16,226 nt of DNA, from NCBI GenBank assembly GCA_045106415.1, contig JBGCEP010000083.1, forward strand, positions 1 through 16,226, read 5' to 3'. The notes under the pieces were generated by a model. That model was not told the origin of the DNA, ran no database searches, and saw nothing but the letters and a program-made list of their open reading frames with translations. Of this stretch, positions 1 to 16,226 are shown piece after piece (position 1 is the first letter of the stretch; the number at the start of each line of letters is the position of its first letter). Made by a program: the position numbers and the translations under genes. Source of the DNA: Oligoflexales bacterium (GTDB lineage Bacteria > Bdellovibrionota_B > Oligoflexia > Oligoflexales > Bog-1112).

Positions 1-1027
1 CAGCCACTGGTGCAAGCGAGATGTACATTACTAACACTTCAGGGTGTTCTTCAGATGGATCTTGGGAAGCGTATGCGACTTCAAAAGCCGGGTGGACTTT
101 AGGGCAAACAAACGCGACGGCAACTGTTTACACTAAATACAAAGACGAAGCAGGTAATGAATCAGCTTGTATTAACGATACAATCACTCATGATGATACT
201 GCACCAACGAGCCCAATGGTCACAATTGCTGGAGGTAGCTCTACTTCTGACGGAACACCCGATTTAATATTATCAGCAGTTAGTGCGGACTATATGTACA
301 TTACGAATACGTCTGGTTGTGGATCTGGTGGCACATGGGAAGCTTACGCGACTTCGAAAGCCAATTGGACGCTCGGTCAAACAAATGCAGTTGCGACTGT
401 CTACGCTAAATATAAAGATGAGGCAGGAAATGAATCAACCTGCGCCAACGATACAATCACTCACGATGATACAGCTCCTGGTTCTCCCTCTCTTGTAATT
501 AGCGGTGGAACGCATACTTTAGATGCAACTCCAGATTTAACTCTATCAGCAGCTGACGCAAGTGAAATGTATATAACAAACACTTCAGGCTGTGGATCTG
601 GCGGCACATGGGAAGCTTATGCAACCTCTAAGTCCAATTGGACTCTAGCCCAGACGAATGCCGTTGCAACAGTGTATGTGAAGTATAAAGATGCTTTAAG
701 CAATACAACAAGTTGTGTGAACGACACAATAACACATGATAATGTGGGGCCAACCAGCCCCGCAATGCTTATCTCTAGTGGTGCTACTTACACGACAAGT
801 TCTTCAGTGACGTTATCTCCAGCTGCTACTTCTGCCAGTGATATGTACATCACAAATACTTCTGGTTGTGGATCAGGAGGGTCTTGGGAAACTTATGCGA
901 CTACTAAAGCGGGTTGGTCTCTAGGACAAACAAACTCAACTGCCACAGTTTACGCTAAATACAAAGACGAAGCTGGAAATGAATCGACCTGTGAAAACGA
1001 TACGATTGTGCATGACAACATAGCCCC
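1..1027 (+). repeat. Intragenic tandem repeats of 273-276 bp (91-92 aa); four copies visible, the last partial
   Basis: The MYITNTSGC unit starts at 21, 294, 567 and 843 (spacings 273, 273, 276). Each copy has WE(A/T)YAT(S/T)KxxWxLxQTNxxATVYxKYKDxxxNxxxCxNDTIxHD with two Cys. Synonymous sites have diverged. Confidence 0.95.
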
Positions 1028-2135
1028 TTCTGACCCTAGTTCTTTTGTTGATGGAGTCGAATCCAAAGATCTCACAGAGTCTGCAGATATGACTTGGGTA
1101 ACGAGTACAGATGCTGGATCTGGGTTTTCTTCTTATGAGCTTTCATTAGGAACTTCATCAGGGGCAACCGATGTGCAAGATTGGACGGATATCGGCGATG
1201 TATTAACAACATCGATGACAGGTTTATCTTTGACTGAGGGGACAACCTATTACGCAAACATACGAGGGTTAGATAACGCTGGGAATATTAGCTCTGTCGT
1301 TAGCGGAGATGGGTTTGCTGGGTTTGATCCAATTGATTGTTCAGGGCTAAGCGGTGGAACTTGGGTTGGCGTACCAGGAGATAGTGATTATGGGACCTCC
1401 GATTTCTGTGTCATGAAATATGAGGCAAAAAATGTTTCTAGCGCTCCTGAATCTAACGCAGCAGGTTCGCCTTGGGTGAGTATTTCTCAAACCACCTCAG
1501 TGACAGAGTGCGCGTCCCTAGGTGGAAGTTATCGTCTAATAACAAATGAGGAATGGATGACGATTGCCTCAAATGTTGCCAATGTTGATGAAAACTGGAG
1601 TGGTGGTACCGTTGGAAGCGGCGTGATGAACCGTGGGCATTCAGATAACTCTCCGTCTAACAGTTTAGCGGCAAGTACGGATGATGATGACCCTTGTTCA
1701 GGAACAGGTCAAACCTGTGATGCTTCGACATGGCACGAACAAAGAAGAACCCACAAGCTTTCAAATGGGGAAGTCATCTGGGATTTATCTGGGAATGTCC
1801 GCAATTGGACCAGCGCATATGAAGTAGCCGGGAAGATCTGCGGAGGGTGCACCGGATGGAAAGAGTATTCCGAATCGTTGTCAGATGGTGCCAACTGGTC
1901 TGTGATTGACTTAGTCCCTAGAAACTCTCAAAAAGGATTTTGGGATGATACCTGGGATTCAGACCAAGAAATAGGACGATACGTTGGGAATACAAACATC
2001 TCGGGAGGTGCGCTACACAGAGGGGGTGGTTGGGCTAACGCTTCTTACGCTGGCGTGTTCACTGCGGATATGTATGATCCGGAATACCGTGTATACACGA
2101 ACCTCGGCTTTCGCTGCTCAGCCTCTGTTCCTTGA
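1..2135 (+). CDS. Large surface/adhesin-like protein, 5'-truncated by the window edge: tandem Ig-like repeats + FN3-like domain + C-terminal FGE-sulfatase (CLec-fold) domain
   Basis: The frame is open upstream of ATG 21 (gcc act ggt gca agc gag = ATGASE, matching the repeat context 'AADASEMYITN'), so the true start lies outside the window. FN3-like segment ~1024-1320 (DAGSGFSSYELSLGTSSG...YYANIRGLDNAGN). CLec/FGE motifs from ~1335: FCVMKYEAK, PWVSIS, RLITNEEW, IWDLSGNVRNW, RGGGW...LGFRC. Confidence 0.85.
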   Translation, partial: ATGASEMYITNTSGCSSDGSWEAYATSKAGWTLGQTNATATVYTKYKDEAGNESACINDTITHDDTAPTSPMVTIAGGSSTSDGTPDLILSAVSADYMYITNTSGCGSGGTWEAYATSKANWTLGQTNAVATVYAKYKDEAGNESTCANDTITHDDTAPGSPSLVISGGTHTLDATPDLTLSAADASEMYITNTSGCGSGGTWEAYATSKSNWTLAQTNAVATVYVKYKDALSNTTSCVNDTITHDNVGPTSPAMLISSGATYTTSSSVTLSPAATSASDMYITNTSGCGSGGSWETYATTKAGWSLGQTNSTATVYAKYKDEAGNESTCENDTIVHDNIAPSDPSSFVDGVESKDLTESADMTWVTSTDAGSGFSSYELSLGTSSGATDVQDWTDIGDVLTTSMTGLSLTEGTTYYANIRGLDNAGNISSVVSGDGFAGFDPIDCSGLSGGTWVGVPGDSDYGTSDFCVMKYEAKNVSSAPESNAAGSPWVSISQTTSVTECASLGGSYRLITNEEWMTIASNVANVDENWSGGTVGSGVMNRGHSDNSPSNSLAASTDDDDPCSGTGQTCDASTWHEQRRTHKLSNGEVIWDLSGNVRNWTSAYEVAGKICGGCTGWKEYSESLSDGANWSVIDLVPRNSQKGFWDDTWDSDQEIGRYVGNTNISGGALHRGGGWANASYAGVFTADMYDPEYRVYTNLGFRCSASVP

Positions 2136-3172: not shown

Positions 3173-6100
3173 ATGGTGCGCGGGTTTATAGCTCTTTTAT
3201 TATGCCTAGGTCTTTTCGGCTGTGATAAAACACAGCCAGGAGAGTACGGCCAAAATAAGAGAACGAAACAAATCCCAGGCGAAAGCGCTGATGCTGTTAC
3301 AGAAAAAACCACCCCCTCAGAAGTCTCCGGTGAAGTAAATAGCAGTAATGCTAATACTTTACCATCTGGGTCAAGTGCCGTAGTGAGACTAGGTGTTCCT
3401 GTGCTTAGAGTTGAGCCATCTGTTGTTCAACTGACACCTGGTCAAGATCAAAAACTTCGTTTCTTTTTTGAAACAAGTCACGAATCGAAAGAAGTCACTC
3501 TAGATATTGAAATTAGGACAGAGGCTCAGAATATTGATGTTCAAAGGGACGAGCAAGGCCTTCTTCACATAAGTGGACTCGGCACCGGTGAGGGAGTCTT
3601 AGAAGCTTACTACGGTGAAGTGAAGGCTGAGGTTCCTTTTGTAGTTCAATTACCACAGGCTATTGGAATTCAATTTGTGCCACAAGTCTTTGATTTAGAA
3701 CCAGGAAGCTCACAGACATATAGGGTGAACGGATTAATGCCTGATGGCTCAACATTTGATGTGACACACCTGGTCCGCTGGAACACATCATCAAACGATG
3801 TGGTGGATGCTCAAGAAAACAATGATGGGTCTTTAAGTGTGACTGCGAAAACTCCTGGAGTATGGGAGCTGAATGGAGCAGCAATGGGTATGGTTGAAAG
3901 GCAAAAGGGTCATATTCAGCCTTATCCCGTAACGGGAATCATAGCAGAGCCATCACTGATTGTTCTTCAACCTGATCAAAAAATTGAAGTGGCTCTCCTG
4001 CTCGAAAGAGGAGGGTTTCAGTTCGATGCTTTAGAAGAAGAAATCGAGAGACAAGAAACATGGGAAGGGGTTGAAGCTTCATGGGATGAGGGGAGATTTT
4101 ATGTTGCTGCTCTAGAAGAGTCAGGAGAAGGGGTGATACGTCTTTCCTACCAAGATATCTCGATAGACATTTCTGTGGTGATCCGAGACCAGCAACCCTC
4201 ATATTTACGGCTTATTGCACCAGAATCTCTTGAACAAGGGATGAGTCGGCAAATATCTGTTTATGCCGTTTACCCAGACGGTAGCGTACAGGATGTGTCT
4301 TTGCTTGCTGATTGGAGCGTGGAAGGTGTAGAGGGGCAAGATATTGCAGAAATTAAAGTTTATGAAAAAAAGAAAAAAATTGAAGCTTTTGGAACAGGGG
4401 AACTTCAGCTCCAAGCTTCATGGAGTGAGATGAAGGTAGCGAAGAACATCATAGTTACACCTATGAAGCCTAGAGCCTTAGAACTCTCTACCTCTAAGAA
4501 AAATCTTGCCGTCAGAAGCTATGTTCAACTGAGAGCTCAAACTCTTGCGCAAAACCGTATCAACCAAGTGTCTTGCGATGTGCGGTGGACATCGCAGAAC
4601 CCTCAAATTATCAAATTAGTGGATCAGTGCGGACGATTTGAAGGAGTGGCTGTAGGAACATCTACGATTTCGGCTGAATGGAACGGCCTTAGTGCAAGCG
4701 TAAGTCTGAATGTAGAACCGTCTCCGATGAAAGAAATTGTTTTTGTTCATAAAGATATTGATATGGTGAAAGGACAAAAACAATCACTTCTCGTGCATGG
4801 AGTCCTAGAAAATGGAACAGTTGTCGCCCTGGATGTGAGAGATGTCCAAGTTCAGGTCCATAGTGCAGGTGTTGTTCAAATAGAAGCTTCGGAGAAGAAT
4901 TTAGTCGCAAAAGCCATCGGAGTGGGGTCTACTTTAATAAAAGCTCGTTATCAAGAATTTGAAGCGCAGATTAATCTGCATGTTGTTGCTGGGAAAATTA
5001 AAGAAATTGCTATCGTTCCTGATGCCATTGAAGTGGCTCTAGGGAATCAAACATCACTGCTCGCTGTTGGGTATTTTCAAGATGGAGCAGTGCGTGACTT
5101 TACGCAGGCTGTAAAGTGGAGTGTTGATGATAGTTCTATTGTACAAGTTCATCAACAAGAAGACGGCCATTATATTCTCAACACTTTAAGTACAGGTAAA
5201 ACAATTCTACGAGCTGACTATGAAGGGAAAAAAGCTGTTGCTATGGTTCAAGTTGTGGATGGATTTTTTGTTGAAATTGTGATCGAACCACGAGAACAAG
5301 TCGCAACATTTGATGATAACCCAGAAACAGGACGCAACGTAACGGTCTATGGTGTTCTTGCTGATGGGCGTAGAGTTGATGTGACAGATCAGGCCGTTTT
5401 GCAAAGCCTGAACCCAAATGTGATCGAAGCCGACAGCAATGTAAAAGGCCGATTTATTGATAAAGGGATCGGATTCGGGATGATTGAAGCAAGGCTAGAT
5501 GAGTTTCGTACAAGTGCTCGTATCGATGTTCGTAAACCATCTGAACCTGATGTCGTCTTAACTTTTGAAGGGCTCCCGGATGATAGAGAAGTCGAAAAAG
5601 GAAAAATAGCCAACATTCAATGGAGTGGTGGAATTGATGCCGTGTCTTGTGATGTGAGAGATATTTCAGGAAAGCTACTAGGGACAACAAGACAAGGAAA
5701 GGTTTCTGTCGATATTCAGGAAGATCAGGTTTTTACCGCGCGTTGTGAAAATGTTCTAGGAGAGTCAGATAAAAAGCATCTTGTTGTAGATCTTTTAAGG
5801 GATCTTAAGCTTACGCCATCTATTGTGGAAATTAGAGAAGGTGGCCATAAGCAAAAGTTTAAAGCAGAGTTTGTCCATGCGTTTGGCCCAGCGGATGTGT
5901 TTTGGGAGGTCATGGCACCTATTGGTGAAGATGGAGGGTATATTGATGAAAAAGGTGTTTATACAAGCCCTAAAAAAATTTTAGAGAGGATGAACGTTAG
6001 GGTTAAAGCAACACTTAAGACAGATACGTCAAAATTTGTGATGGGGATGATCCATATAAACCCAGAAGACACCATTTTTGTGCGGTGTTCTCAGGGGCAA

Positions 6101-6562
6101 AAACAGTTCCCTATTCTTGCTGAGATCTACCAAATGTCAGAAGACTCGACAGGTCTTCCTGATTATGATCAGCTAACAAAAATCGATGAAGTTTGTATGG
6201 ATGAGTATAATGTTGCTGTGAGAAAATTTACAGAAGGTTTTCCTAATGTACGTGATCTTATTGAATGGTTTTCCTTAAAAACGACAACAAAAATTATAGC
6301 CCCTCAAACAGGTATTTATACTTTCACACTAATTTCCGATGATGGAGCACAGCTGAAAATTGAAAACCGGATGGTTGTCGACAACGATGGTTTGCACCTC
6401 CCACAGTCTAGAAGTGGTCAGATTTATCTGGAAAAAGGCCAAAGTTATGAAGTGAATTTGAATTATTTTCAAGGACCAAGGTTTTATATCGCTCTGCAGT
6501 TGTTTTGGACTGTTCCAGGGAGTGAGCAAAGTGTGATTGTCCCAAGAGAGGTTTTTGAGTAA
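3173..6562 (+). CDS. Lipoprotein with multiple bacterial Ig-like (Big_2, invasin/Lig-type) repeats and a C-terminal PA14 domain; putative adhesin
   Basis: Lipobox signal MVRGFIALLLCLGLFG-C. Recurring motif VxGxxxDGxxxDVTxxxxW (VNGLMPDGSTFDVTHLVRW, VYAVYPDGSVQDVSLLADW, AVGYFQDGAVRDFTQAVKW, VYGVLADGRRVDVTDQA) and GxGxxxIxAxY strands. PA14 signature APQTGIYTFTLISDDGAQLKIENRMVVDNDGLH...YFQG...LQLFW at the C-terminus. Confidence 0.88.
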   Translation: MVRGFIALLLCLGLFGCDKTQPGEYGQNKRTKQIPGESADAVTEKTTPSEVSGEVNSSNANTLPSGSSAVVRLGVPVLRVEPSVVQLTPGQDQKLRFFFETSHESKEVTLDIEIRTEAQNIDVQRDEQGLLHISGLGTGEGVLEAYYGEVKAEVPFVVQLPQAIGIQFVPQVFDLEPGSSQTYRVNGLMPDGSTFDVTHLVRWNTSSNDVVDAQENNDGSLSVTAKTPGVWELNGAAMGMVERQKGHIQPYPVTGIIAEPSLIVLQPDQKIEVALLLERGGFQFDALEEEIERQETWEGVEASWDEGRFYVAALEESGEGVIRLSYQDISIDISVVIRDQQPSYLRLIAPESLEQGMSRQISVYAVYPDGSVQDVSLLADWSVEGVEGQDIAEIKVYEKKKKIEAFGTGELQLQASWSEMKVAKNIIVTPMKPRALELSTSKKNLAVRSYVQLRAQTLAQNRINQVSCDVRWTSQNPQIIKLVDQCGRFEGVAVGTSTISAEWNGLSASVSLNVEPSPMKEIVFVHKDIDMVKGQKQSLLVHGVLENGTVVALDVRDVQVQVHSAGVVQIEASEKNLVAKAIGVGSTLIKARYQEFEAQINLHVVAGKIKEIAIVPDAIEVALGNQTSLLAVGYFQDGAVRDFTQAVKWSVDDSSIVQVHQQEDGHYILNTLSTGKTILRADYEGKKAVAMVQVVDGFFVEIVIEPREQVATFDDNPETGRNVTVYGVLADGRRVDVTDQAVLQSLNPNVIEADSNVKGRFIDKGIGFGMIEARLDEFRTSARIDVRKPSEPDVVLTFEGLPDDREVEKGKIANIQWSGGIDAVSCDVRDISGKLLGTTRQGKVSVDIQEDQVFTARCENVLGESDKKHLVVDLLRDLKLTPSIVEIREGGHKQKFKAEFVHAFGPADVFWEVMAPIGEDGGYIDEKGVYTSPKKILERMNVRVKATLKTDTSKFVMGMIHINPEDTIFVRCSQGQKQFPILAEIYQMSEDSTGLPDYDQLTKIDEVCMDEYNVAVRKFTEGFPNVRDLIEWFSLKTTTKIIAPQTGIYTFTLISDDGAQLKIENRMVVDNDGLHLPQSRSGQIYLEKGQSYEVNLNYFQGPRFYIALQLFWTVPGSEQSVIVPREVFE

Positions 6563-9566: not shown

Positions 9567-9595
9567 TTGACGCGAGGTTGAGAAGACTGTAACAA
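9567..9595 (+). promoter_or_regulatory. Putative sigma70 promoter of the nucleotide translocase gene
   Basis: TTGACG (9567-9572)-N17-TAACAA (9590-9595), with a T-rich UP-like tract upstream. Confidence 0.4.
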
Positions 9596-9676
9596 GTCCC
9601 ATGATCTTTAGCCCCGCTGTTGTTGGCGTGGTGTCATCCCACCTCAGGCACTTTCTGTTTTTTTTGGAGGTATTCA

Positions 9677-11242
9677 ATGTCAGGAACCGGAGAATCGGCA
9701 TCTTTTGGTAAGATCCGATCAGTATTGTGGCCAATTTACTCTTATGAGTTAAAGAAGCTCCTTCCTATGTTTTTTATGTTTTTCTGCATTTCGTTCAACT
9801 ACACGATTTTGCGTGATACGAAGGATGCGTTGGTAACTACAGCTCCAAATTCTGGTGCAGAAGCAATTCCTTTCTTGAAGTTGTGGTGTGTTTTACCTGC
9901 TGCAATTCTTCTTGTCTATATTTACTCGCGTTTGAGTAATGTCCTTAGCCGTGACCGCCTTTTTTATACAATGATCGCTCCTTTCATGGCTTTTTTCATT
10001 CTTTTCGGGTTTGTTTTATATCCAATGCGTGATGTGATTCACCCAACTGAAACAGCAGCAATGTTAAGGGAAATCTTACCGTCTACCGGTTTTTTTCGTG
10101 GCCTTTTAGCTGTGTTTGAACACTGGAGCTTTAGCATCTACTACGTTTTGGCTGAAATGTGGGGAAGCATGGTTCTTTCTATGATGTTTTGGGGGTTTGC
10201 TAATGAAATCACAAAAACAACTGAAGCAAAACGTTTTTATGGTCTTCTCGGTATCGGTGCAAACCTTGCTCTTGTTGTTTCTGGTCCTGTGACAATTTGG
10301 GCTTCTCCTGGTCGTGGTCAGCCTTTTGGTTCTTCTCTTCAAGTTTTGATGACATTAACTACGATCTCAGCAGCTCTTGCTGTAGCGACATATGCTTGGA
10401 TGAACCGTTACGTATTAACAGATCCTCGTTTTTATGACCCATCAAAAGTTCGTAAGAAAAAGCCCAAAACAAAAATGCCAATGAGCGAGAGCTTAAAGTT
10501 CTTGTTTCAATCACGCTACTTAGGTTGCATTGCATTTATGGTGATGGCTTATGGCCTAACAATCAACCTGATTGAAGTTGTCTGGAAGGGTCAGGTTCAG
10601 ATGATGTACCCAGATCCGGCTGATTACACGCGTTTCCGTGGGCAGTTTTCAACAGCAATGGGACTTTGTAGTCTTGTCATGTTTATCTTTGTAAGTCACA
10701 ACGTCCTTCGCCGTTTTGGTTGGACTGTTGCAGCTCTTATCACTCCTGTTATTCTTATGTTCACAGGAACGTCATTTTTTGGATTTGCAACTTTCCGTGA
10801 CGCGATTCCATCTGTGCTTATGCTTGGAACGTCACCTTTGATGATGGCTGTTATCTTTGGTGCTGCTCAGAATGTTATGACAAAATCTTCAAAATACTCT
10901 CTTTTTGATCCTACAAAAGAGATGGCGTATATTCCTTTGGACGATGAGTCTAAGGTTAAAGGTAAAGCAGCCATCGATGTTGTTGGAGCTCGTCTTGGTA
11001 AATCAGGCGGATCTTTGATTTTGATGCCTCTTATGCTCTTCTTCACAAGTATTACAGAACCACTTCCTATCTTTATTGTTGGATGTGTTGTGATCGGAGT
11101 TGGCATGGGTTGGATTAAATCCGCACGTACTCTTGGTGGTCTTTATCATGCACTTGTTGCTGAAAAAGAAGGCGAAGAAGCACTTGCAGCAGCTAATGAT
11201 TCTGAAAAAAGTCCTGTAGGAGCAGAACCTGCAAAAGCTTAA
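9677..11242 (+). CDS. npt1: ATP/ADP translocase (NTT/Tlc/Npt1, AAA family), 521 aa
   Basis: Start reassigned from TTG 9620 to ATG 9677 (SD GGAGG at 9666-9670). The N-terminus FGKIRSVLWPI..ELKKLLPMFFMFFCISFNYTILRDTKD..APNSGAEAIPF closely resembles chlamydial Npt1 and plastid NTTs. Also LAEMWGS, FWGFANEIT..EAKRFY, NLIEVVWK, KYSLFDPTKEMAYIPLD, KGKAAIDVVGARLGKSGG. Confidence 0.96.
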   Translation: MSGTGESASFGKIRSVLWPIYSYELKKLLPMFFMFFCISFNYTILRDTKDALVTTAPNSGAEAIPFLKLWCVLPAAILLVYIYSRLSNVLSRDRLFYTMIAPFMAFFILFGFVLYPMRDVIHPTETAAMLREILPSTGFFRGLLAVFEHWSFSIYYVLAEMWGSMVLSMMFWGFANEITKTTEAKRFYGLLGIGANLALVVSGPVTIWASPGRGQPFGSSLQVLMTLTTISAALAVATYAWMNRYVLTDPRFYDPSKVRKKKPKTKMPMSESLKFLFQSRYLGCIAFMVMAYGLTINLIEVVWKGQVQMMYPDPADYTRFRGQFSTAMGLCSLVMFIFVSHNVLRRFGWTVAALITPVILMFTGTSFFGFATFRDAIPSVLMLGTSPLMMAVIFGAAQNVMTKSSKYSLFDPTKEMAYIPLDDESKVKGKAAIDVVGARLGKSGGSLILMPLMLFFTSITEPLPIFIVGCVVIGVGMGWIKSARTLGGLYHALVAEKEGEEALAAANDSEKSPVGAEPAKA

Positions 11243-11263
11243 TTTTGTGTTCTGTTTTTGAAG

Positions 11264-11297
11264 AAAAGCCTCTGTATTTTATAGTACAGAGGCTTTT
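11264..11297. terminator. Bidirectional rho-independent terminator between the convergent npt1 and VWA genes
   Basis: aaaagcctctgta-ttttatag-tacagaggctttt: perfect 13-bp inverted repeat with a T-tract on both strands. The VWA gene stop codon lies in the loop. Confidence 0.85.
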
Positions 11298-12658
11298 TCT
11301 ATTTTAATTTTTTGAAATTTTTTATCTTCTTTGCAAGATTGAAAATCACCTGATTTGGCATCTTGTGTTGGTAAGCAGCAGTGCTTAGCAAAGATTTGAA
11401 AATCATCTTTGTCTCCTGTTTCTTTTATGTTTATAGTTATATTTTCTCTTCTCTCTTTCCAAACATCTTTAATGTCTGGTGACCATGTTTTAATAATGTT
11501 GTTTAATTTTCTAACTTCAATTTCTGAAGTCATACAGCTCATTTTCTTATTAGCAACTGTTTCACTGATATTTGTGTAGAGTTGATCTAGAAGTGATTTT
11601 TTAGTGAAAGGCCATGGGAGCTGATGATCGTCACTTGATGCTTGAGGGCTGAGGGCTTGCAGAAGAGCTTCATATTGATGAGATGGAGAAATCCAGTTAT
11701 CTATACAGTCTAATAGGCTAGGGTCAAGGGCCGCTGCTAGGTTTTCATCAAGGTCAATATTTTTTTTATTCCGTGATGAATAGAAGAATTTCCATTGATT
11801 AGGTTTTTGTGAAAAAAAGTCTTTCATAAAATCAGCGGTCGCACTTATATTACAGTCGTAGTCGAAATTAAGAGTGTCGTGACCCCATGAGTCAGTGACT
11901 AAAACGATTGTACGTATAGCATTCTCACGGTCTTCATTATCTTCTATATACTTAGAGGCTTCTTCTAGAGCTTTTAAACTTGCTTCAGGAATATCCCCCC
12001 CACCTTGAGCTGTATAGCTTCTTAGAGCACTTCTAAAGCTTTCTATATCGTTTTCAAATGATCTTGAAGGTTCAACGGTATCTCTGAAAGCTGTAAGATT
12101 GAGGTGGACATCAATATCCTCTTTTTCTAACTTTTTAGAGAAGTCACCAATTTGTGAAACAATCACGTCCAGTACATCATTCATAGAATTTGTGATGTCG
12201 ATGACAAAATGCATGGTAACGGGGTCTTTTATTTTTTCACCATCGATTTGTCGGGTGTTATAACCGTTGAAAAAAAGTTTTGTTTGTTTATCTTCTGCTT
12301 TTTTTATGATGACTTGTAGTGACTTTTCAATGTCATCACAATGAAGATAAATATCTTTGTCTTGTATGATATTTTGATAAACGATATCTCCTGACCTTTC
12401 TTTTGAAATATCTTCTTCTCCAATATGAAGAGAACATTCTTCAGAGAGGGCTCCATCCCAAGTGACCTCAATATTTTCGCCTTCTTTTATATGGATATCT
12501 TTTTTAGAAGAGTTGACTTCAAGGGTGATATCACTTGCCGTAGCTTCTTCAGCATTAGCAATGGCTTGTTTTTCACTGTTTTGGAAAGAACTTTTAGAAC
12601 ATGATGTTAGACAATAAAACACTAAAATGACAGGAAGATAAAGATTACTTTGATACAT
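11279..12658 (-). CDS. Lipoprotein with a von Willebrand factor A (VWA) domain
   Basis: Signal/lipobox LPVILVFYCLTS-C. MIDAS-like HFVIDITNSM (DxTxS), LTAFRD, AQGGGDIPEA, IVLVTD. A small beta-rich Cys-pair domain (IEVTWDG...C...LHC) precedes the VWA domain. Confidence 0.85.
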   Translation of the reverse strand: MYQSNLYLPVILVFYCLTSCSKSSFQNSEKQAIANAEEATASDITLEVNSSKKDIHIKEGENIEVTWDGALSEECSLHIGEEDISKERSGDIVYQNIIQDKDIYLHCDDIEKSLQVIIKKAEDKQTKLFFNGYNTRQIDGEKIKDPVTMHFVIDITNSMNDVLDVIVSQIGDFSKKLEKEDIDVHLNLTAFRDTVEPSRSFENDIESFRSALRSYTAQGGGDIPEASLKALEEASKYIEDNEDRENAIRTIVLVTDSWGHDTLNFDYDCNISATADFMKDFFSQKPNQWKFFYSSRNKKNIDLDENLAAALDPSLLDCIDNWISPSHQYEALLQALSPQASSDDHQLPWPFTKKSLLDQLYTNISETVANKKMSCMTSEIEVRKLNNIIKTWSPDIKDVWKERRENITINIKETGDKDDFQIFAKHCCLPTQDAKSGDFQSCKEDKKFQKIKIEKASVL

Positions 12659-12811: not shown

Positions 12812-13186
12812 TTAGAACGCCGTGATGATCTCTTCTATAGATTCAACAAAGCTGTCATAGTCGAGTGCTTTTTTAAAGAAGTGGGTCACACCAAACTGTT
12901 TGAGTGTCTCAAAATCGTAATCAGAATATCCTGTCATACAAATGATAGCTTTGAGTTTGATTTCTTTTTCTTGTATCCAATTTAAAAGAAATATCCCGTT
13001 TTTTCCAGGCATTTTAATATCTGTTACAAGAATGCCATGAGGATTTTTTGTGAGAGAGTCCATAGCCTGATCTACGTTTGAATAAATTTTTATTTCACAC
13101 TCACTAAGAAACTCTAGTTGTTCTTTAATTGAATCAAGAATATCGATTTCATCGTCAACGATATGGATAATTTTTTTATGATTCAT
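12812..13186 (-). CDS. Single-domain response regulator (CheY-like receiver)
   Basis: IHIVDDE acidic pocket, LVTDIKMPGKNG phospho-acceptor, MTGYS, FFKK; SD GAGG before the ATG. Confidence 0.93.
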   Translation of the reverse strand: MNHKKIIHIVDDEIDILDSIKEQLEFLSECEIKIYSNVDQAMDSLTKNPHGILVTDIKMPGKNGIFLLNWIQEKEIKLKAIICMTGYSDYDFETLKQFGVTHFFKKALDYDSFVESIEEIITAF

Positions 13187-13260
13187 AAAACCTCTAAAAT
13201 TAAATTAAGATTTTTCGTATGATTTTATTGGAAGTCTACTTAGCGATGTGGTTTTGTCTT

Positions 13261-14505
13261 TTAGAAGCCCTCATCATCAAAGTCTTCAAATTTTGTAATA
13301 ATGTCTTGGGAACGATTGGTACCAGATTTTTGTGTAGAAGCTTTTGATAATATCTGAGAGTTATGGCTTGCAGATGTAAAGCTAGGGTCTTTTTGTAACG
13401 CGGATTCAAAAGCTTCAAGGGCATCATCTTTTTGTCCAGATTTATAATAACCTAAACCCATATTAAAGAATATACGAGCCTGAAACCGAGGTTTATCACT
13501 CAGAAAAGAAAGTGCAGTACGGTAGAGAGAAAGAGCTTGGTCGTATTTTAACTGCCGAATACATAAAACTGCAGAATCATTGAAAATAGAAGCTATCTCA
13601 CGAGGCTCTCTGATGTTTTTTAAAAGAGTAAGGGCATCGTTAATAGAGTCTTGAAGCATGTGACATTGACTTTTACCAATAATGGCTTCAGTTTTATCTG
13701 ATTGAAGCTCAAGAGCTTTGTCGAAATTTTTTTGTGCTGCTGCGGTTTTTCCTGATTTTAATAAAGCTTGCCCCAGCTCAACAATGCGATCAGAGTGCCA
13801 TGGATTTAAAATTTGTGCTTCTTGTAGAATATTAGATGCTTCTTCGTAGAGACCTTGTTTAAGGAAACATCGCCCGAGTAGGTGGCGGCCACGAGGATTC
13901 TCTGGAAATGATGACATTAGTTTTTTTGCTGTATTTCTCGCGTCTTCCCAGTTCTCTAATAAGATATGACAATTGGTTTTCTCTGCAAGAGTTTCTGACT
14001 TTAAACCATACTCTTCTTCAATCTCTAGAAGTATGTTTAAAGAGTCTTGGTACATGGCTAATTTTTTTTTCTTGATAGCATCTTCAAATTTAAGTCGATA
14101 ATCTTGTTGATGGCTGTCTTCTGCATAGTTCTGTAAAAATTGAATATGGTCGTTGAGGTCCTGTTTGGTCAGTGAGCCTTGATGAAATCGTGTGACTTGT
14201 TGATCAACAGCAAGTGCAACAAGCTCTTGAGAAACAGTCACAGAAATAAGAAATGTTGGGCGAGGAAGAAAATCTCCTGACATTTTTTTTGAAAATTCTA
14301 AAAGAGAAACTGTGGCAGGAGGTTGCCAGTCTATAATAAGAAGAGCGGTTTCATGTTTTTGTAAAAGATCTGAGCATTCGTCAATATTTGCTGCAACGTG
14401 AAGTGTTTTTATATTGCTGTCACGCACGCATTGACGCACTGAGTCACGGATTCCAGTGCTTTCTACGAAAACAATAGCGTCTTGAATAGGTACTGAAATG
14501 ATCAC
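13261..14505 (-). CDS. Tetratricopeptide-repeat protein with an N-terminal degenerate receiver domain
   Basis: Probable start GTG at 14505 (SD GGAGG 5 nt upstream) rather than 14574. Receiver-like N-terminus (AIVFVES...LHVAANIDEC...LLIIDW). TPRs: LLGRCFLKQGLYEEA, ELGQALLKSGKTAAAQKNFDKALEL, FFNMGLGYYKSGQKDDALEAFESALQKDP. Confidence 0.85.
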   Translation of the reverse strand: MIISVPIQDAIVFVESTGIRDSVRQCVRDSNIKTLHVAANIDECSDLLQKHETALLIIDWQPPATVSLLEFSKKMSGDFLPRPTFLISVTVSQELVALAVDQQVTRFHQGSLTKQDLNDHIQFLQNYAEDSHQQDYRLKFEDAIKKKKLAMYQDSLNILLEIEEEYGLKSETLAEKTNCHILLENWEDARNTAKKLMSSFPENPRGRHLLGRCFLKQGLYEEASNILQEAQILNPWHSDRIVELGQALLKSGKTAAAQKNFDKALELQSDKTEAIIGKSQCHMLQDSINDALTLLKNIREPREIASIFNDSAVLCIRQLKYDQALSLYRTALSFLSDKPRFQARIFFNMGLGYYKSGQKDDALEAFESALQKDPSFTSASHNSQILSKASTQKSGTNRSQDIITKFEDFDDEGF

Positions 14506-14805
14506 ATCAACCTCCCTGCTAAAGTCTATGATCTCATACATCATCGCTTTTTGAACATAGATTGAAAAAAACAATAGTTAAATGCGGTGTGCGAGTTTTA
14601 ACATAACCAGTTTCTTGAATTTTAAGAGAGGTTTGTCCAACTCTTTATTTAAAAAGACTGATTTAAAAATTCTCTGAATCCACAGACATACGAGATAGAT
14701 TAATCTTTTGTCGATAAATTTTCATCAAAATGAAAATCACTCCTTCTTTTTGAATGGTTTAGACGCACACTGGTCCCCAAAAAAATGGCAACTTCACTCA
14801 GAAAC

Positions 14806-15024: not shown

Positions 15025-16226
15025 AGATATAACCAAATTTAGTGGATGAGAAGAAAAAGGCAGCGTACCCTCCTGGTAACCAAACCAACCTTGGTCCAAG
15101 ACCAAAATCTGGAGAATACGCTATGAATACTCGTACCAAAAGAATCGACTCAACATCATCTAATTCTACAAATGATGTCTTGAGTGAAGTATTAAAAGCT
15201 GGTGCTCAGAAGATGCTTGCGGCTGCAGTTGAGTCAGAAATATCTGAATATGTTGCTACATTTGAAGATCAACTTGATGAACATGGAAAAAGACTTGTTG
15301 TCCGGAATGGTTTCCATCCATGTAGAAGAATTCAAACAGGGCTGGGAGATATAGAAGTAACAGCACCTCGAATCAACGACCGCCGATATGATAAGGATGG
15401 TAATAGGGTCAGATTTACCAGCAGTATCTTGCCTCCATACCTCAGAAGAACTAAAAGCGTTGGAGAGTTAATCCCTTGGCTTTATCTTAAAGGAATCTCA
15501 ACTGGGGATTTTTCTGAAGCCCTGACATCATTACTGGGCCCAGAAGCAGGCGGCCTTTCAGCGACAACAGTGACTCGGATGAAAGAGAAATGGGGTGATG
15601 AACATGATGACTGGAGCAATAGAAGCCTTGCAGGAAAGAAGTATGTCTATTGGTGGGCAGACGGAATTTACTTCAGTGTGAGGCTTGGAAACGGAGACCG
15701 AGTTTGCATGATGGTTATCATAGGTGCCTTAGACAATGGTAAAAAAGAGCTTGTTGCAGTTGTCCCAGGAGTACGAGAGCTCACTCTGAGCTGGAAGGAA
15801 ATTCTACTGAATCTACGAGATCGTGGATTGCAAGAAGAGCCAGAGTTAGCGACAGCAGATGGCGCATTAGGATTCTGGAGTGCAATGTCTGAAGTTTTTC
15901 CCAACAGTGATCAACAGATGTGCTGGGTGCACAAAATTGCAAATGTCCTAGATAAAATTCCTAAGACTCGACAGCCCCAGGCCAAGTCAATGCTGCACGA
16001 AATATATAATGCTGACACAGGAAAGGAGGCTGGGAAGGCTTTTAACCGATTTTCAGAGGTGTTTACAGATAAATACCCACGTGCTGTTAATAGCCTAATG
16101 AAAAATCGTGAAAGGCTTCTTACTTTTTACAATTATCCTGCTACGCATTGGCAACATATCAGGACCAGTAATCCCATAGAGTCAACCTTTGCAACCGTTC
16201 GATTGCGAAGTAAGAGAACAAAAGGA
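15024..16226 (+). mobile_element. IS256-family insertion sequence (right end outside the window)
   Basis: Putative left end GAGATATAACCAAATTTAGTGG at ~15024, exactly where similarity of the antisense transposase fragment stops. It is followed by the IS256 transposase ORF. Confidence 0.85.
15123..16226 (+). CDS. IS256-family (mutator-type) transposase, 3'-truncated by the window edge
   Basis: Absent from the ORF track because there is no stop in the window. Open for 368 codons from ATG 15123 (SD GGAGA). Motifs VVRNG, ILPPYLRR, LYLKGISTGDF, YWWADGIY, TADGALGFW, CWVHK, IRTSNPIESTFATVR, with all D-D-CxxH-E residues present. Confidence 0.95.
   Translation, partial: MNTRTKRIDSTSSNSTNDVLSEVLKAGAQKMLAAAVESEISEYVATFEDQLDEHGKRLVVRNGFHPCRRIQTGLGDIEVTAPRINDRRYDKDGNRVRFTSSILPPYLRRTKSVGELIPWLYLKGISTGDFSEALTSLLGPEAGGLSATTVTRMKEKWGDEHDDWSNRSLAGKKYVYWWADGIYFSVRLGNGDRVCMMVIIGALDNGKKELVAVVPGVRELTLSWKEILLNLRDRGLQEEPELATADGALGFWSAMSEVFPNSDQQMCWVHKIANVLDKIPKTRQPQAKSMLHEIYNADTGKEAGKAFNRFSEVFTDKYPRAVNSLMKNRERLLTFYNYPATHWQHIRTSNPIESTFATVRLRSKRTKG

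Follow-up and report, generated by a model that had tools for sequence, protein, structure and literature searches.

What would a bacterium of motile type do with a carrier closely related to the ATP/ADP translocator of chlamydiae? The question is raised by a gene for a nucleotide transporter (NTT) of the NTT1 type, located at 9677..11242 on the forward strand of the window, which is the entire 16,226-bp contig C83 of an Oligoflexales metagenome-assembled genome (MAG). This genome, designated G000, amounts to 2.95 Mb in 89 contigs, with a completeness of 93.8% and a contamination of 0.33%. NTT carriers are a molecular hallmark of bacteria living off the nucleotide pool of another cell, and a canonical NTT1-type carrier is unexpected in a motile-type lineage without described host-dependent members. 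The answer proposed here, which we hold with moderate confidence, is that this carrier would act as an antiporter exchanging ATP and ADP, that two other NTTs would import nucleotides, and that the cell would depend on the nucleotide pool of a host or prey. Judging from gene content, the bacterium probably lives off another cell.

By its sequence and its predicted fold, the window gene is a real and canonical NTT1-type transporter. Its stop-free frame encodes 521 amino acids plus stop, with a stand-alone TLC domain. The match to the TLC profile PF03219 reaches 638.4 bits (E 1.1e-191, cut-off 21) and spans profile positions 5-489 of 491, and the TIGR00769 profile, 'NTP/NDP exchange transporter', is matched at 609 bits for a cut-off of 387. 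TLC is the sole Pfam family above its cut-off, MFS_1 remaining under its own at 21 bits, and no Pfam match to a HEAT or cNBD domain was obtained in the 521-residue protein, which is thus of the stand-alone and not of the HEAT-fused type. Free-living bacteria possess NTT-HEAT and NTT-HEAT-cNBD fusions, as presented in the part of PMC5381601 used here; these have the TLC transporter domain in common with the window protein, which differs from them by the lack of both additional domains. The first-pass annotation, made from the DNA letters, had described a full-length, canonical NTT of the non-HEAT type, and this description agrees well with the profile scores as well as with the structural model.

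This AlphaFold2 model, built from 44 aligned sequences (predicted local distance difference test score, pLDDT, 83.5; predicted template-modelling score, pTM, 0.83), has as its top fold match the ATP-bound Chlamydia pneumoniae ATP/ADP translocator NTT1 (PDB 9j3n), with template-modelling (TM) scores of 0.86/0.91, a root-mean-square deviation of 2.5 Å and 52% identity. The second match is the ATP-bound form of the plastid transporter AtNTT1 (9j3l, TM 0.85/0.91), and the query-normalised TM scores of non-NTT folds are at most 0.56. The corresponding sequence scores are 568 bits against 9j3n and 452 bits against AtNTT1 (9j3j). The C. pneumoniae protein (Npt1, 9j3n/9j3o) also has a stand-alone TLC domain and a similar length, and it belongs to the same NTT1 clade. 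AtNTT1 (9j3j/9j3l/9j3m) has four charged residues in common with the window protein; it is nevertheless more distant, with 47% identity versus 52% for the chlamydial NTT1, and is located in the organelle envelope and equipped with a transit peptide. PamNTT1 of Protochlamydia amoebophila represents the same class of carrier, according to the part of PMC1951785 used here.

The four motifs RDTKD, LAEMWG, NLIEVVWK and GKSGG, which include these charged residues (K/E/E/K), are all found in the 521-residue protein, as the first-pass annotation had noted. They had also been taken, the GKSGG lysine in particular, as a sign of true ATP/ADP exchange, and this second part could not be maintained. The same residues, whose functional role comes from mutagenesis studies referred to in PMC1951785 and which we take to be essential in plastid NTT1, are also conserved in 15 non-NTT1 paralogues; they are kept in 24 aligned NTTs of every type, the lone exception being an E-to-D replacement at the third position in a G000 paralogue (c). 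Being common to all NTT types, they mark the NTT family and not ATP/ADP exchange specifically. Three motifs do separate, in the alignment, 5 chlamydial NTT1 sequences from 10 chlamydial non-NTT1 paralogues, namely RDTKD (R-x-x-KD in the paralogues), FDPTKEM (FD[AST]TKE) and AIDVVGA (AIDG[VI]GS). The window protein carries the NTT1 form at all three, in common with the chlamydial NTT1 sequences, and this lends some weight to ATP/ADP exchange. Broader comparisons were made on two sets of alignment columns. Across 32 chlamydial NTT1 sequences, 117 columns do not vary; the window protein keeps 107 of them, and the two NTT paralogues of G000 keep 77 and 75. The second set consists of 24 signature columns, chosen for a conservation of 90% or more in NTT1 and a sharing of 10% or less with 12 chlamydial paralogues. 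The window protein keeps 12 of them and the two G000 paralogues 4 and 3, for ranges of 17-24 in chlamydial NTT1, 0-6 in chlamydial paralogues and 12-19 (median 16) in the sub-clade to which the window protein belongs. On these counts, the window protein appears to be of the NTT1 type, yet it is the most diverged member of its sub-clade.

The position of the protein among NTTs was determined from two trees. The input comprised the NTTs of 16 genomes of the GTDB family of G000, all paralogues of five named chlamydial genomes, 25 of 80 contig-database loci and 16 of 119 metagenomic homologues, with the exclusion of sequences shorter than 400 amino acids and of two weak MFS-like matches (L148, L151). 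Plastid, rickettsial, Dependentiae and Amoebophilus sequences lie outside this sampling, and PamNTT1 is represented by a stand-in, the orthologue of a Protochlamydia sp. MAG (L133). A quick tree of 104 rows was obtained with L149 and L150 as outgroup, and a more careful tree of 70 rows with IQ-TREE under LG+G4, the supports being given as ultrafast bootstrap/SH-like approximate likelihood ratio test (SH-aLRT). Both trees contain an NTT1-type clade including the window protein, with a support of 100/100 in the careful tree, which carries out, for chlamydial and family sequences, the phylogenetic check suggested at first pass. This clade is made of four main sub-clades and one unplaced row, L019. 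The chlamydial NTT1 sub-clade has 32 rows (83/77). The window sub-clade, which lies next to it, has 15 rows (100/99), with proteins from G000, G008, G009 and G012 and 11 metagenomic proteins, and the two other NTT1-type sub-clades come from the same bacterial family as G000. The careful tree does not settle the order in which these four sub-clades branch, the chlamydial one and the three from Oligoflexales. The window gene and chlamydial NTT1 are connected through a horizontal transfer, in one direction or the other; any such transfer is old, since the GC content of the NTT (0.41-0.42) resembles that of the genome. Its affinity with chlamydiae hints at a eukaryotic niche common to both. In the row L019, an 'uncultured bacterium' record, two NTT genes stand in tandem, with 60% and 49% identity to the window protein; the first of them is the one left unplaced at the base of the NTT1-type clade.

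G000 encodes three NTTs in total. The other two, at C10:35617-37059 and C10:71538-73013, fall outside the NTT1 clade and group with chlamydial non-NTT1 paralogues. Their neighbourhoods (L154, L155) are dissimilar: one adjoins genes for a Na_sulph_symp/CitMHS transporter and a Na+/H+ antiporter, the other adjoins NUDIX, inositol-monophosphatase-family and HAD hydrolase genes.

Does the window gene truly belong to an Oligoflexales genome? Outside the family, its nearest relatives are from Chlamydiota, with 46-57% identity, its neighbours are not conserved near the orthologues of its relatives, and there are two loose ends in the assembly just past the gene, all of which would fit with a mis-binned or chimeric chlamydial piece. 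Such a contamination is nevertheless hardly credible in view of the rest of the evidence. The nearest named NTT is that of 'MAG: Oligoflexales bacterium DT_79' (63%; NCBI Bdellovibrionota; Oligoflexia; Oligoflexales), and NTT1-type orthologues with 61-63% identity are found in three other family genomes. The two further NTTs lie on a 136-kb contig, C10, which also bears COX1. The composition of C83 fits the bin (GC 0.403 versus 0.398; tetranucleotide correlation 0.978 versus a median of 0.989), and its first open reading frame (ORF) has paralogues on 11 other contigs. The final 141 bases of C83 are identical to the end of contig C11, which indicates that the assembly broke inside a copy of an insertion sequence (IS), probably joining C83 to C11. 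The depth in sequencing run X1 is even, about 5-10x outside the repeat-bearing first bin, and an independent Logan contig spans 8713-11194. Composition, overlap, paralogues, depth and bridging contig thus tie C83 to its bin, and the assembly chimera feared at first pass did not materialise. The same run yields Logan contigs that leave the window at intergenic positions 2460, 6645, 11312 and 11321, with continuations absent from the G000 assembly, which suggests co-occurring relatives with another gene order.

The lineage itself was assessed with ATP synthase beta, encoded on contig C35. Its nearest matches are unnamed MAG proteins, with up to 83% identity; the ten organism-named ones among the matches listed comprise five 'Oligoflexales bacterium', two Deltaproteobacteria, one Bdellovibrionota, one Zetaproteobacteria and one Meloidogyne incognita entry, and none is chlamydial. 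The genome is therefore placed as Oligoflexales-type and non-chlamydial, and a flagellar FlhA gene (863 bits) bears out the motile type proposed at first pass. The UniRef entry from the nematode M. incognita (P0158, 628 amino acids) matches the G000 protein with 837 bits and 71% identity over 69% of the query, and it may be DNA of a related bacterium within the nematode assembly. The window DNA was detected in three sequencing runs of one study, labelled 'plant metagenome', which is maybe the source of the MAG and is uninformative on habitat; no RNA run matched the window among the runs listed.

If the carrier serves to import nucleotides, the biosynthetic pathways of the cell are the next place to look. 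Searches for purH, pyrB and pyrD found none of them in G000, nor a true purF, the lone match being GlmS-like (109 bits), nor purA, which is present in 15 of 15 relatives. With the three NTTs, these absences answer the two checks on transporter number and nucleotide synthesis proposed at first pass. Both purF and purH are missing from the same six family genomes (G000, G002, G005, G007, G009 and G013), and a true pyrB (at least 221 bits) is found in 5 of 15 relatives. Of 25 genomes from sister families, 22 yielded purH and 21 yielded pyrB. A pyrF marker, TIGR01740, was discarded as uninformative, being mostly absent from the sister families too (14 of 41 genomes matched). The relative G014 carries an operon with the order purL-purQ-purH-purC/E-purD-purN-purF-(adenosine-deaminase-like)-guaB-guaA. 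In G000, guaB-guaA alone is kept; the pair lies mid-contig on C86, preceded by unrelated genes, and the remaining 8 operon proteins of G014 have no tblastn match at E<=1e-15 anywhere in the genome. The mid-contig position of guaB-guaA without the rest of the operon points to a real loss and not to an assembly gap. The IMPDH-family gene adjoining guaA (C86 7569-8684, L158) encodes 371 amino acids, without the CBS pair of the 493-residue guaB product of G014; it may represent an IMP dehydrogenase devoid of CBS domains or else a GMP reductase, which would alter purine interconversion. G000 retains CTP synthase (804 bits), GMP synthase (419 bits) and ribonucleotide reductase (669 bits).

From these elements, the following mechanism can be proposed. 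The NTT1-type carrier, in the inner membrane, would import external ATP in exchange for internal ADP, with or without phosphate, as does the chlamydial Npt1/NTT1. Net import of the other nucleotides would fall to the two NTTs of contig C10, and the nucleotide pools would be completed by CTP synthase, GMP synthase and ribonucleotide reductase. Nucleoside triphosphates are present at useful concentration only inside cells; outside, they are scarce and short-lived. The bacterium would thus have to reach the cytosol of another cell, which it might do by living within or attached to a eukaryotic cell, or by preying on bacteria. The combination of nucleotide-synthesis loss with NTTs, which is one feature of host dependence, is found in G000; another one, a strongly reduced genome together with a host-directed secretion system, is not seen in this genome.

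The scarcity of external nucleoside triphosphates also bears on a milder possibility, that of a free-living bacterium scavenging nucleotides from lysed cells or a biofilm, with no host or prey. A 2.95-Mb genome with FlhA, respiration genes and citrate synthase would suit such a life, as would the failure to find a marker of type III, type IV or type VI secretion systems (T3SS, T4SS, T6SS), and NTT genes are present in many free-living organisms according to the part of PMC5381601 used here. The free-living NTTs highlighted in that same part are, however, chiefly HEAT/cNBD fusions (PMC5381601), whereas the window NTT is of the stand-alone type of parasites and plastids, and the joint loss of purine and pyrimidine synthesis with three NTTs is the pattern of cell-dependent bacteria. 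We therefore consider the scavenger quite improbable.

Several observations weigh against the preferred reading as a whole. The cell can produce its own ATP, since it encodes ATP synthase beta (atpD, 816 bits), a COX1 haem-copper oxidase (439 bits) and citrate synthase (433 bits), and its genome, at 2.95 Mb for 93.8% completeness, is not small. Neither an additional FlhA/SctV nor VirB4 nor the T6SS sheath component VipB turned up in the MAG, which has one ankyrin ORF only, so that the usual tools of eukaryote manipulation are not seen; since no T3SS, T4SS or T6SS marker was detected and the lineage is akin to predators, prey bacteria are possible. The window gene differs in this respect from that of C. 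pneumoniae, as it resides in an Oligoflexales genome with FlhA and respiration genes, where no T3SS was found, and as it keeps half of the 24 signature positions. This number is the lowest of its own sub-clade, and the terminal branch is long (0.59), so that a drift of its substrate is possible. The absence calls were made on a 94%-complete MAG. A strict 1:1 exchange of ATP and ADP provides no net adenylate, and the missing purA is thus left unexplained by the window gene alone. Finally, the right-hand junction of the gene, 11194-11434, is bridged by no listed Logan piece, and it is there that two Logan contigs diverge, at 11312 and 11321.

Two readings with another direction or another substrate draw on the same observations. 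The protein could be a member of the NTT1 clade which now mainly brings in a different nucleotide or a cofactor (NAD+ or GTP, or else net adenylate through symport), that is, a third nutrient importer. Its low count of NTT1-specific positions and long terminal branch would be explained in this way, a respiring cell with an ATP synthase needs nucleotides over energy, and one without a detectable purA needs net adenylate. Opposed to this are the 107 of 117 NTT1-invariant positions and all three NTT1-specific motifs which the protein keeps, the fact that its top matches in sequence and structure are proven ATP/ADP translocators, and the presence of two importer-type paralogues already in the genome. 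A change of substrate is accordingly rated as unlikely. Still less likely, to the point of being highly improbable, is transport in the outward direction, ATP being exported in exchange for ADP, either to a host, as proposed for 'Candidatus Azoamicus ciliaticola', or into the periplasm of the bacterium itself. It is true that gradients set the direction of an NTT1 exchanger, and that ATP synthase, haem-copper oxidase and citrate synthase are all encoded. The loss of purine and pyrimidine synthesis looks, however, like that of a taker and not of a giver; the protein is not HEAT-fused and has no exported kinase partner alongside, and both genome size and flagellar genes are unlike those of an organelle-like symbiont. 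ATP import by the NTT1-type carrier, with nucleotide import by its two paralogues, thus remains the reading that we prefer.

How far does this reading extend beyond G000? The search with PF03219 revealed full-length NTTs in 15 of 15 other genomes of the GTDB family, with 1-6 strong matches each, while 25 genomes belonging to 15 further families of the order gave weak partial matches at most. At the level of the GTDB phylum (131 genomes, E<=1e-60), a strong NTT is found in all 16 genomes of the family and in 1 of the 115 outside it. Of the 16 family genomes, 15 contribute to a 'core' NTT clade (20 rows, SH-aLRT 100), so that an NTT was probably gained at the root of the family. NTT1-type copies are found in 12 of the 16 genomes, and the window sub-type in 4; by its place in the trees, the window NTT1-type gene is an extra copy in those 4 of 16 family genomes, held in common with Chlamydiota. 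The sole outsider, G133, is a 1.8-Mb genome of another order; its NTT (C3:14394-15857, L152) groups at 100/100 with that of the family member G006, which suggests a transfer between the two lineages.

The losses, on the other hand, appear piecemeal across the family, as judged from gene searches: purine synthesis is found in 10 of 16 genomes, true pyrB in 5 of 16 and FlhA in 10 of 16 (9 of the 15 relatives), for genome sizes of 1.8-6.3 Mb. A tentative proposal, possible if rather doubtful, is that the family would be an undescribed radiation of nucleotide or energy parasites within Oligoflexales, part-way through the transition.

Is this lineage new to NTTs, as the first-pass annotation implied? 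Supplementary trees aside, no paper linking Oligoflexales or Oligoflexia to NTTs was found in the literature, and this part of the claim stands. The search for Bdellovibrionota with 'ADP translocase' returned co-mentions only, the terms being unrelated; the translocase is not mentioned in the Spirobacillus genome paper, nor are Oligoflexia and Bdellovibrio in PMC9352585 and PMC9816063. There is however a precedent in a predatory lineage, which limits the novelty. Major et al. (2017) described NTTs as widespread, with 33 deltaproteobacterial sequences, in the part of their paper used here (PMC5381601). In the same part, the predatory bacterium Halobacteriovorax marinus has a divergent NTT, grouped with Simkania NTT4 and diatom NTTs (PMC5381601). 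The likeness lies in the possession of an NTT by a predatory bacterium of the former Deltaproteobacteria, and the difference in its grouping, which is not with NTT1 as far as that part of PMC5381601 goes, whereas the window protein is NTT1-type. Copies resembling a Simkania paralogue (clade with L144) are found in other family genomes, and none in G000.

The reading frame and its surroundings in the window can be described briefly. A Shine-Dalgarno sequence GGAGG (9666..9670, forward strand) precedes the ATG at 9677 with a 6-nt spacer. A longer frame starting from TTG-9620 was also considered, but the alignments with homologues begin at about residue 6, which makes it the less likely choice. 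Upstream, a weak candidate sigma-70-like promoter, TTGAGA-16 nt-CATGAT (9578..9605, forward strand), matches the consensus at 9 of 12 positions; the consensus scan of the region gave 5 such sites for 3.9 expected, which is not above chance. The sigma28-like promoters reported at first pass found no support in a scan with the sigma-28 consensus, which was at the level of chance, with no exact match and 6 three-mismatch matches for 4.4 expected. A terminator scan identified a 16-bp hairpin with a T-run 21 nt past the NTT stop (11263..11298, forward strand), and since it overlaps the 3' end of the convergent gene for a VWA-domain protein (11279-12658, reverse strand), it is probably a bidirectional terminator.

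The neighbours at 11279-12658 and 12812-14574, both on the reverse strand, correspond in Pfam to the VWA protein, a stand-alone receiver domain and a TPR protein. On the other side, the NTT has as neighbour on the forward strand a 1129-residue Big_2/PA14 protein by Pfam (3173-6562). An IS256-family transposase (15042-16226, forward strand, 287 bits to NF033543) is truncated where the contig stops. Besides the NTT, no gene is common to the window and the orthologue loci L005, L006, L007 and L019. The first ORF (21-2135, forward strand) encodes a 704-residue protein with no Pfam family above cut-off. Its paralogues on the 11 other G000 contigs have 40-68% identity, and staggered self-like alignments suggest internal repeats in the protein; a search for a DNA tandem repeat in its gene found none. 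Atlas gave weak leads to Ig/fn3-like surface proteins, with a best score of 0.92. This protein and its paralogues may form an expanded family of adhesins.

The interest of these observations lies in the family as a whole. Its members vary in purine and pyrimidine synthesis and in flagellar genes, and provide a natural series in which to ask whether the transporter or the pathway loss came first; in the sample studied, every genome has the transporter and the losses are scattered. The MAGs of the family are flagged as organisms that probably do not grow axenically, and three NTTs, together with a 16S or NTT probe, offer a handle for finding the host or prey. The victim might even be a bacterium, since the searches revealed no secretion system directed at eukaryotes. 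If this were true, the members of the family would be predators draining the ATP of their prey directly through an NTT.

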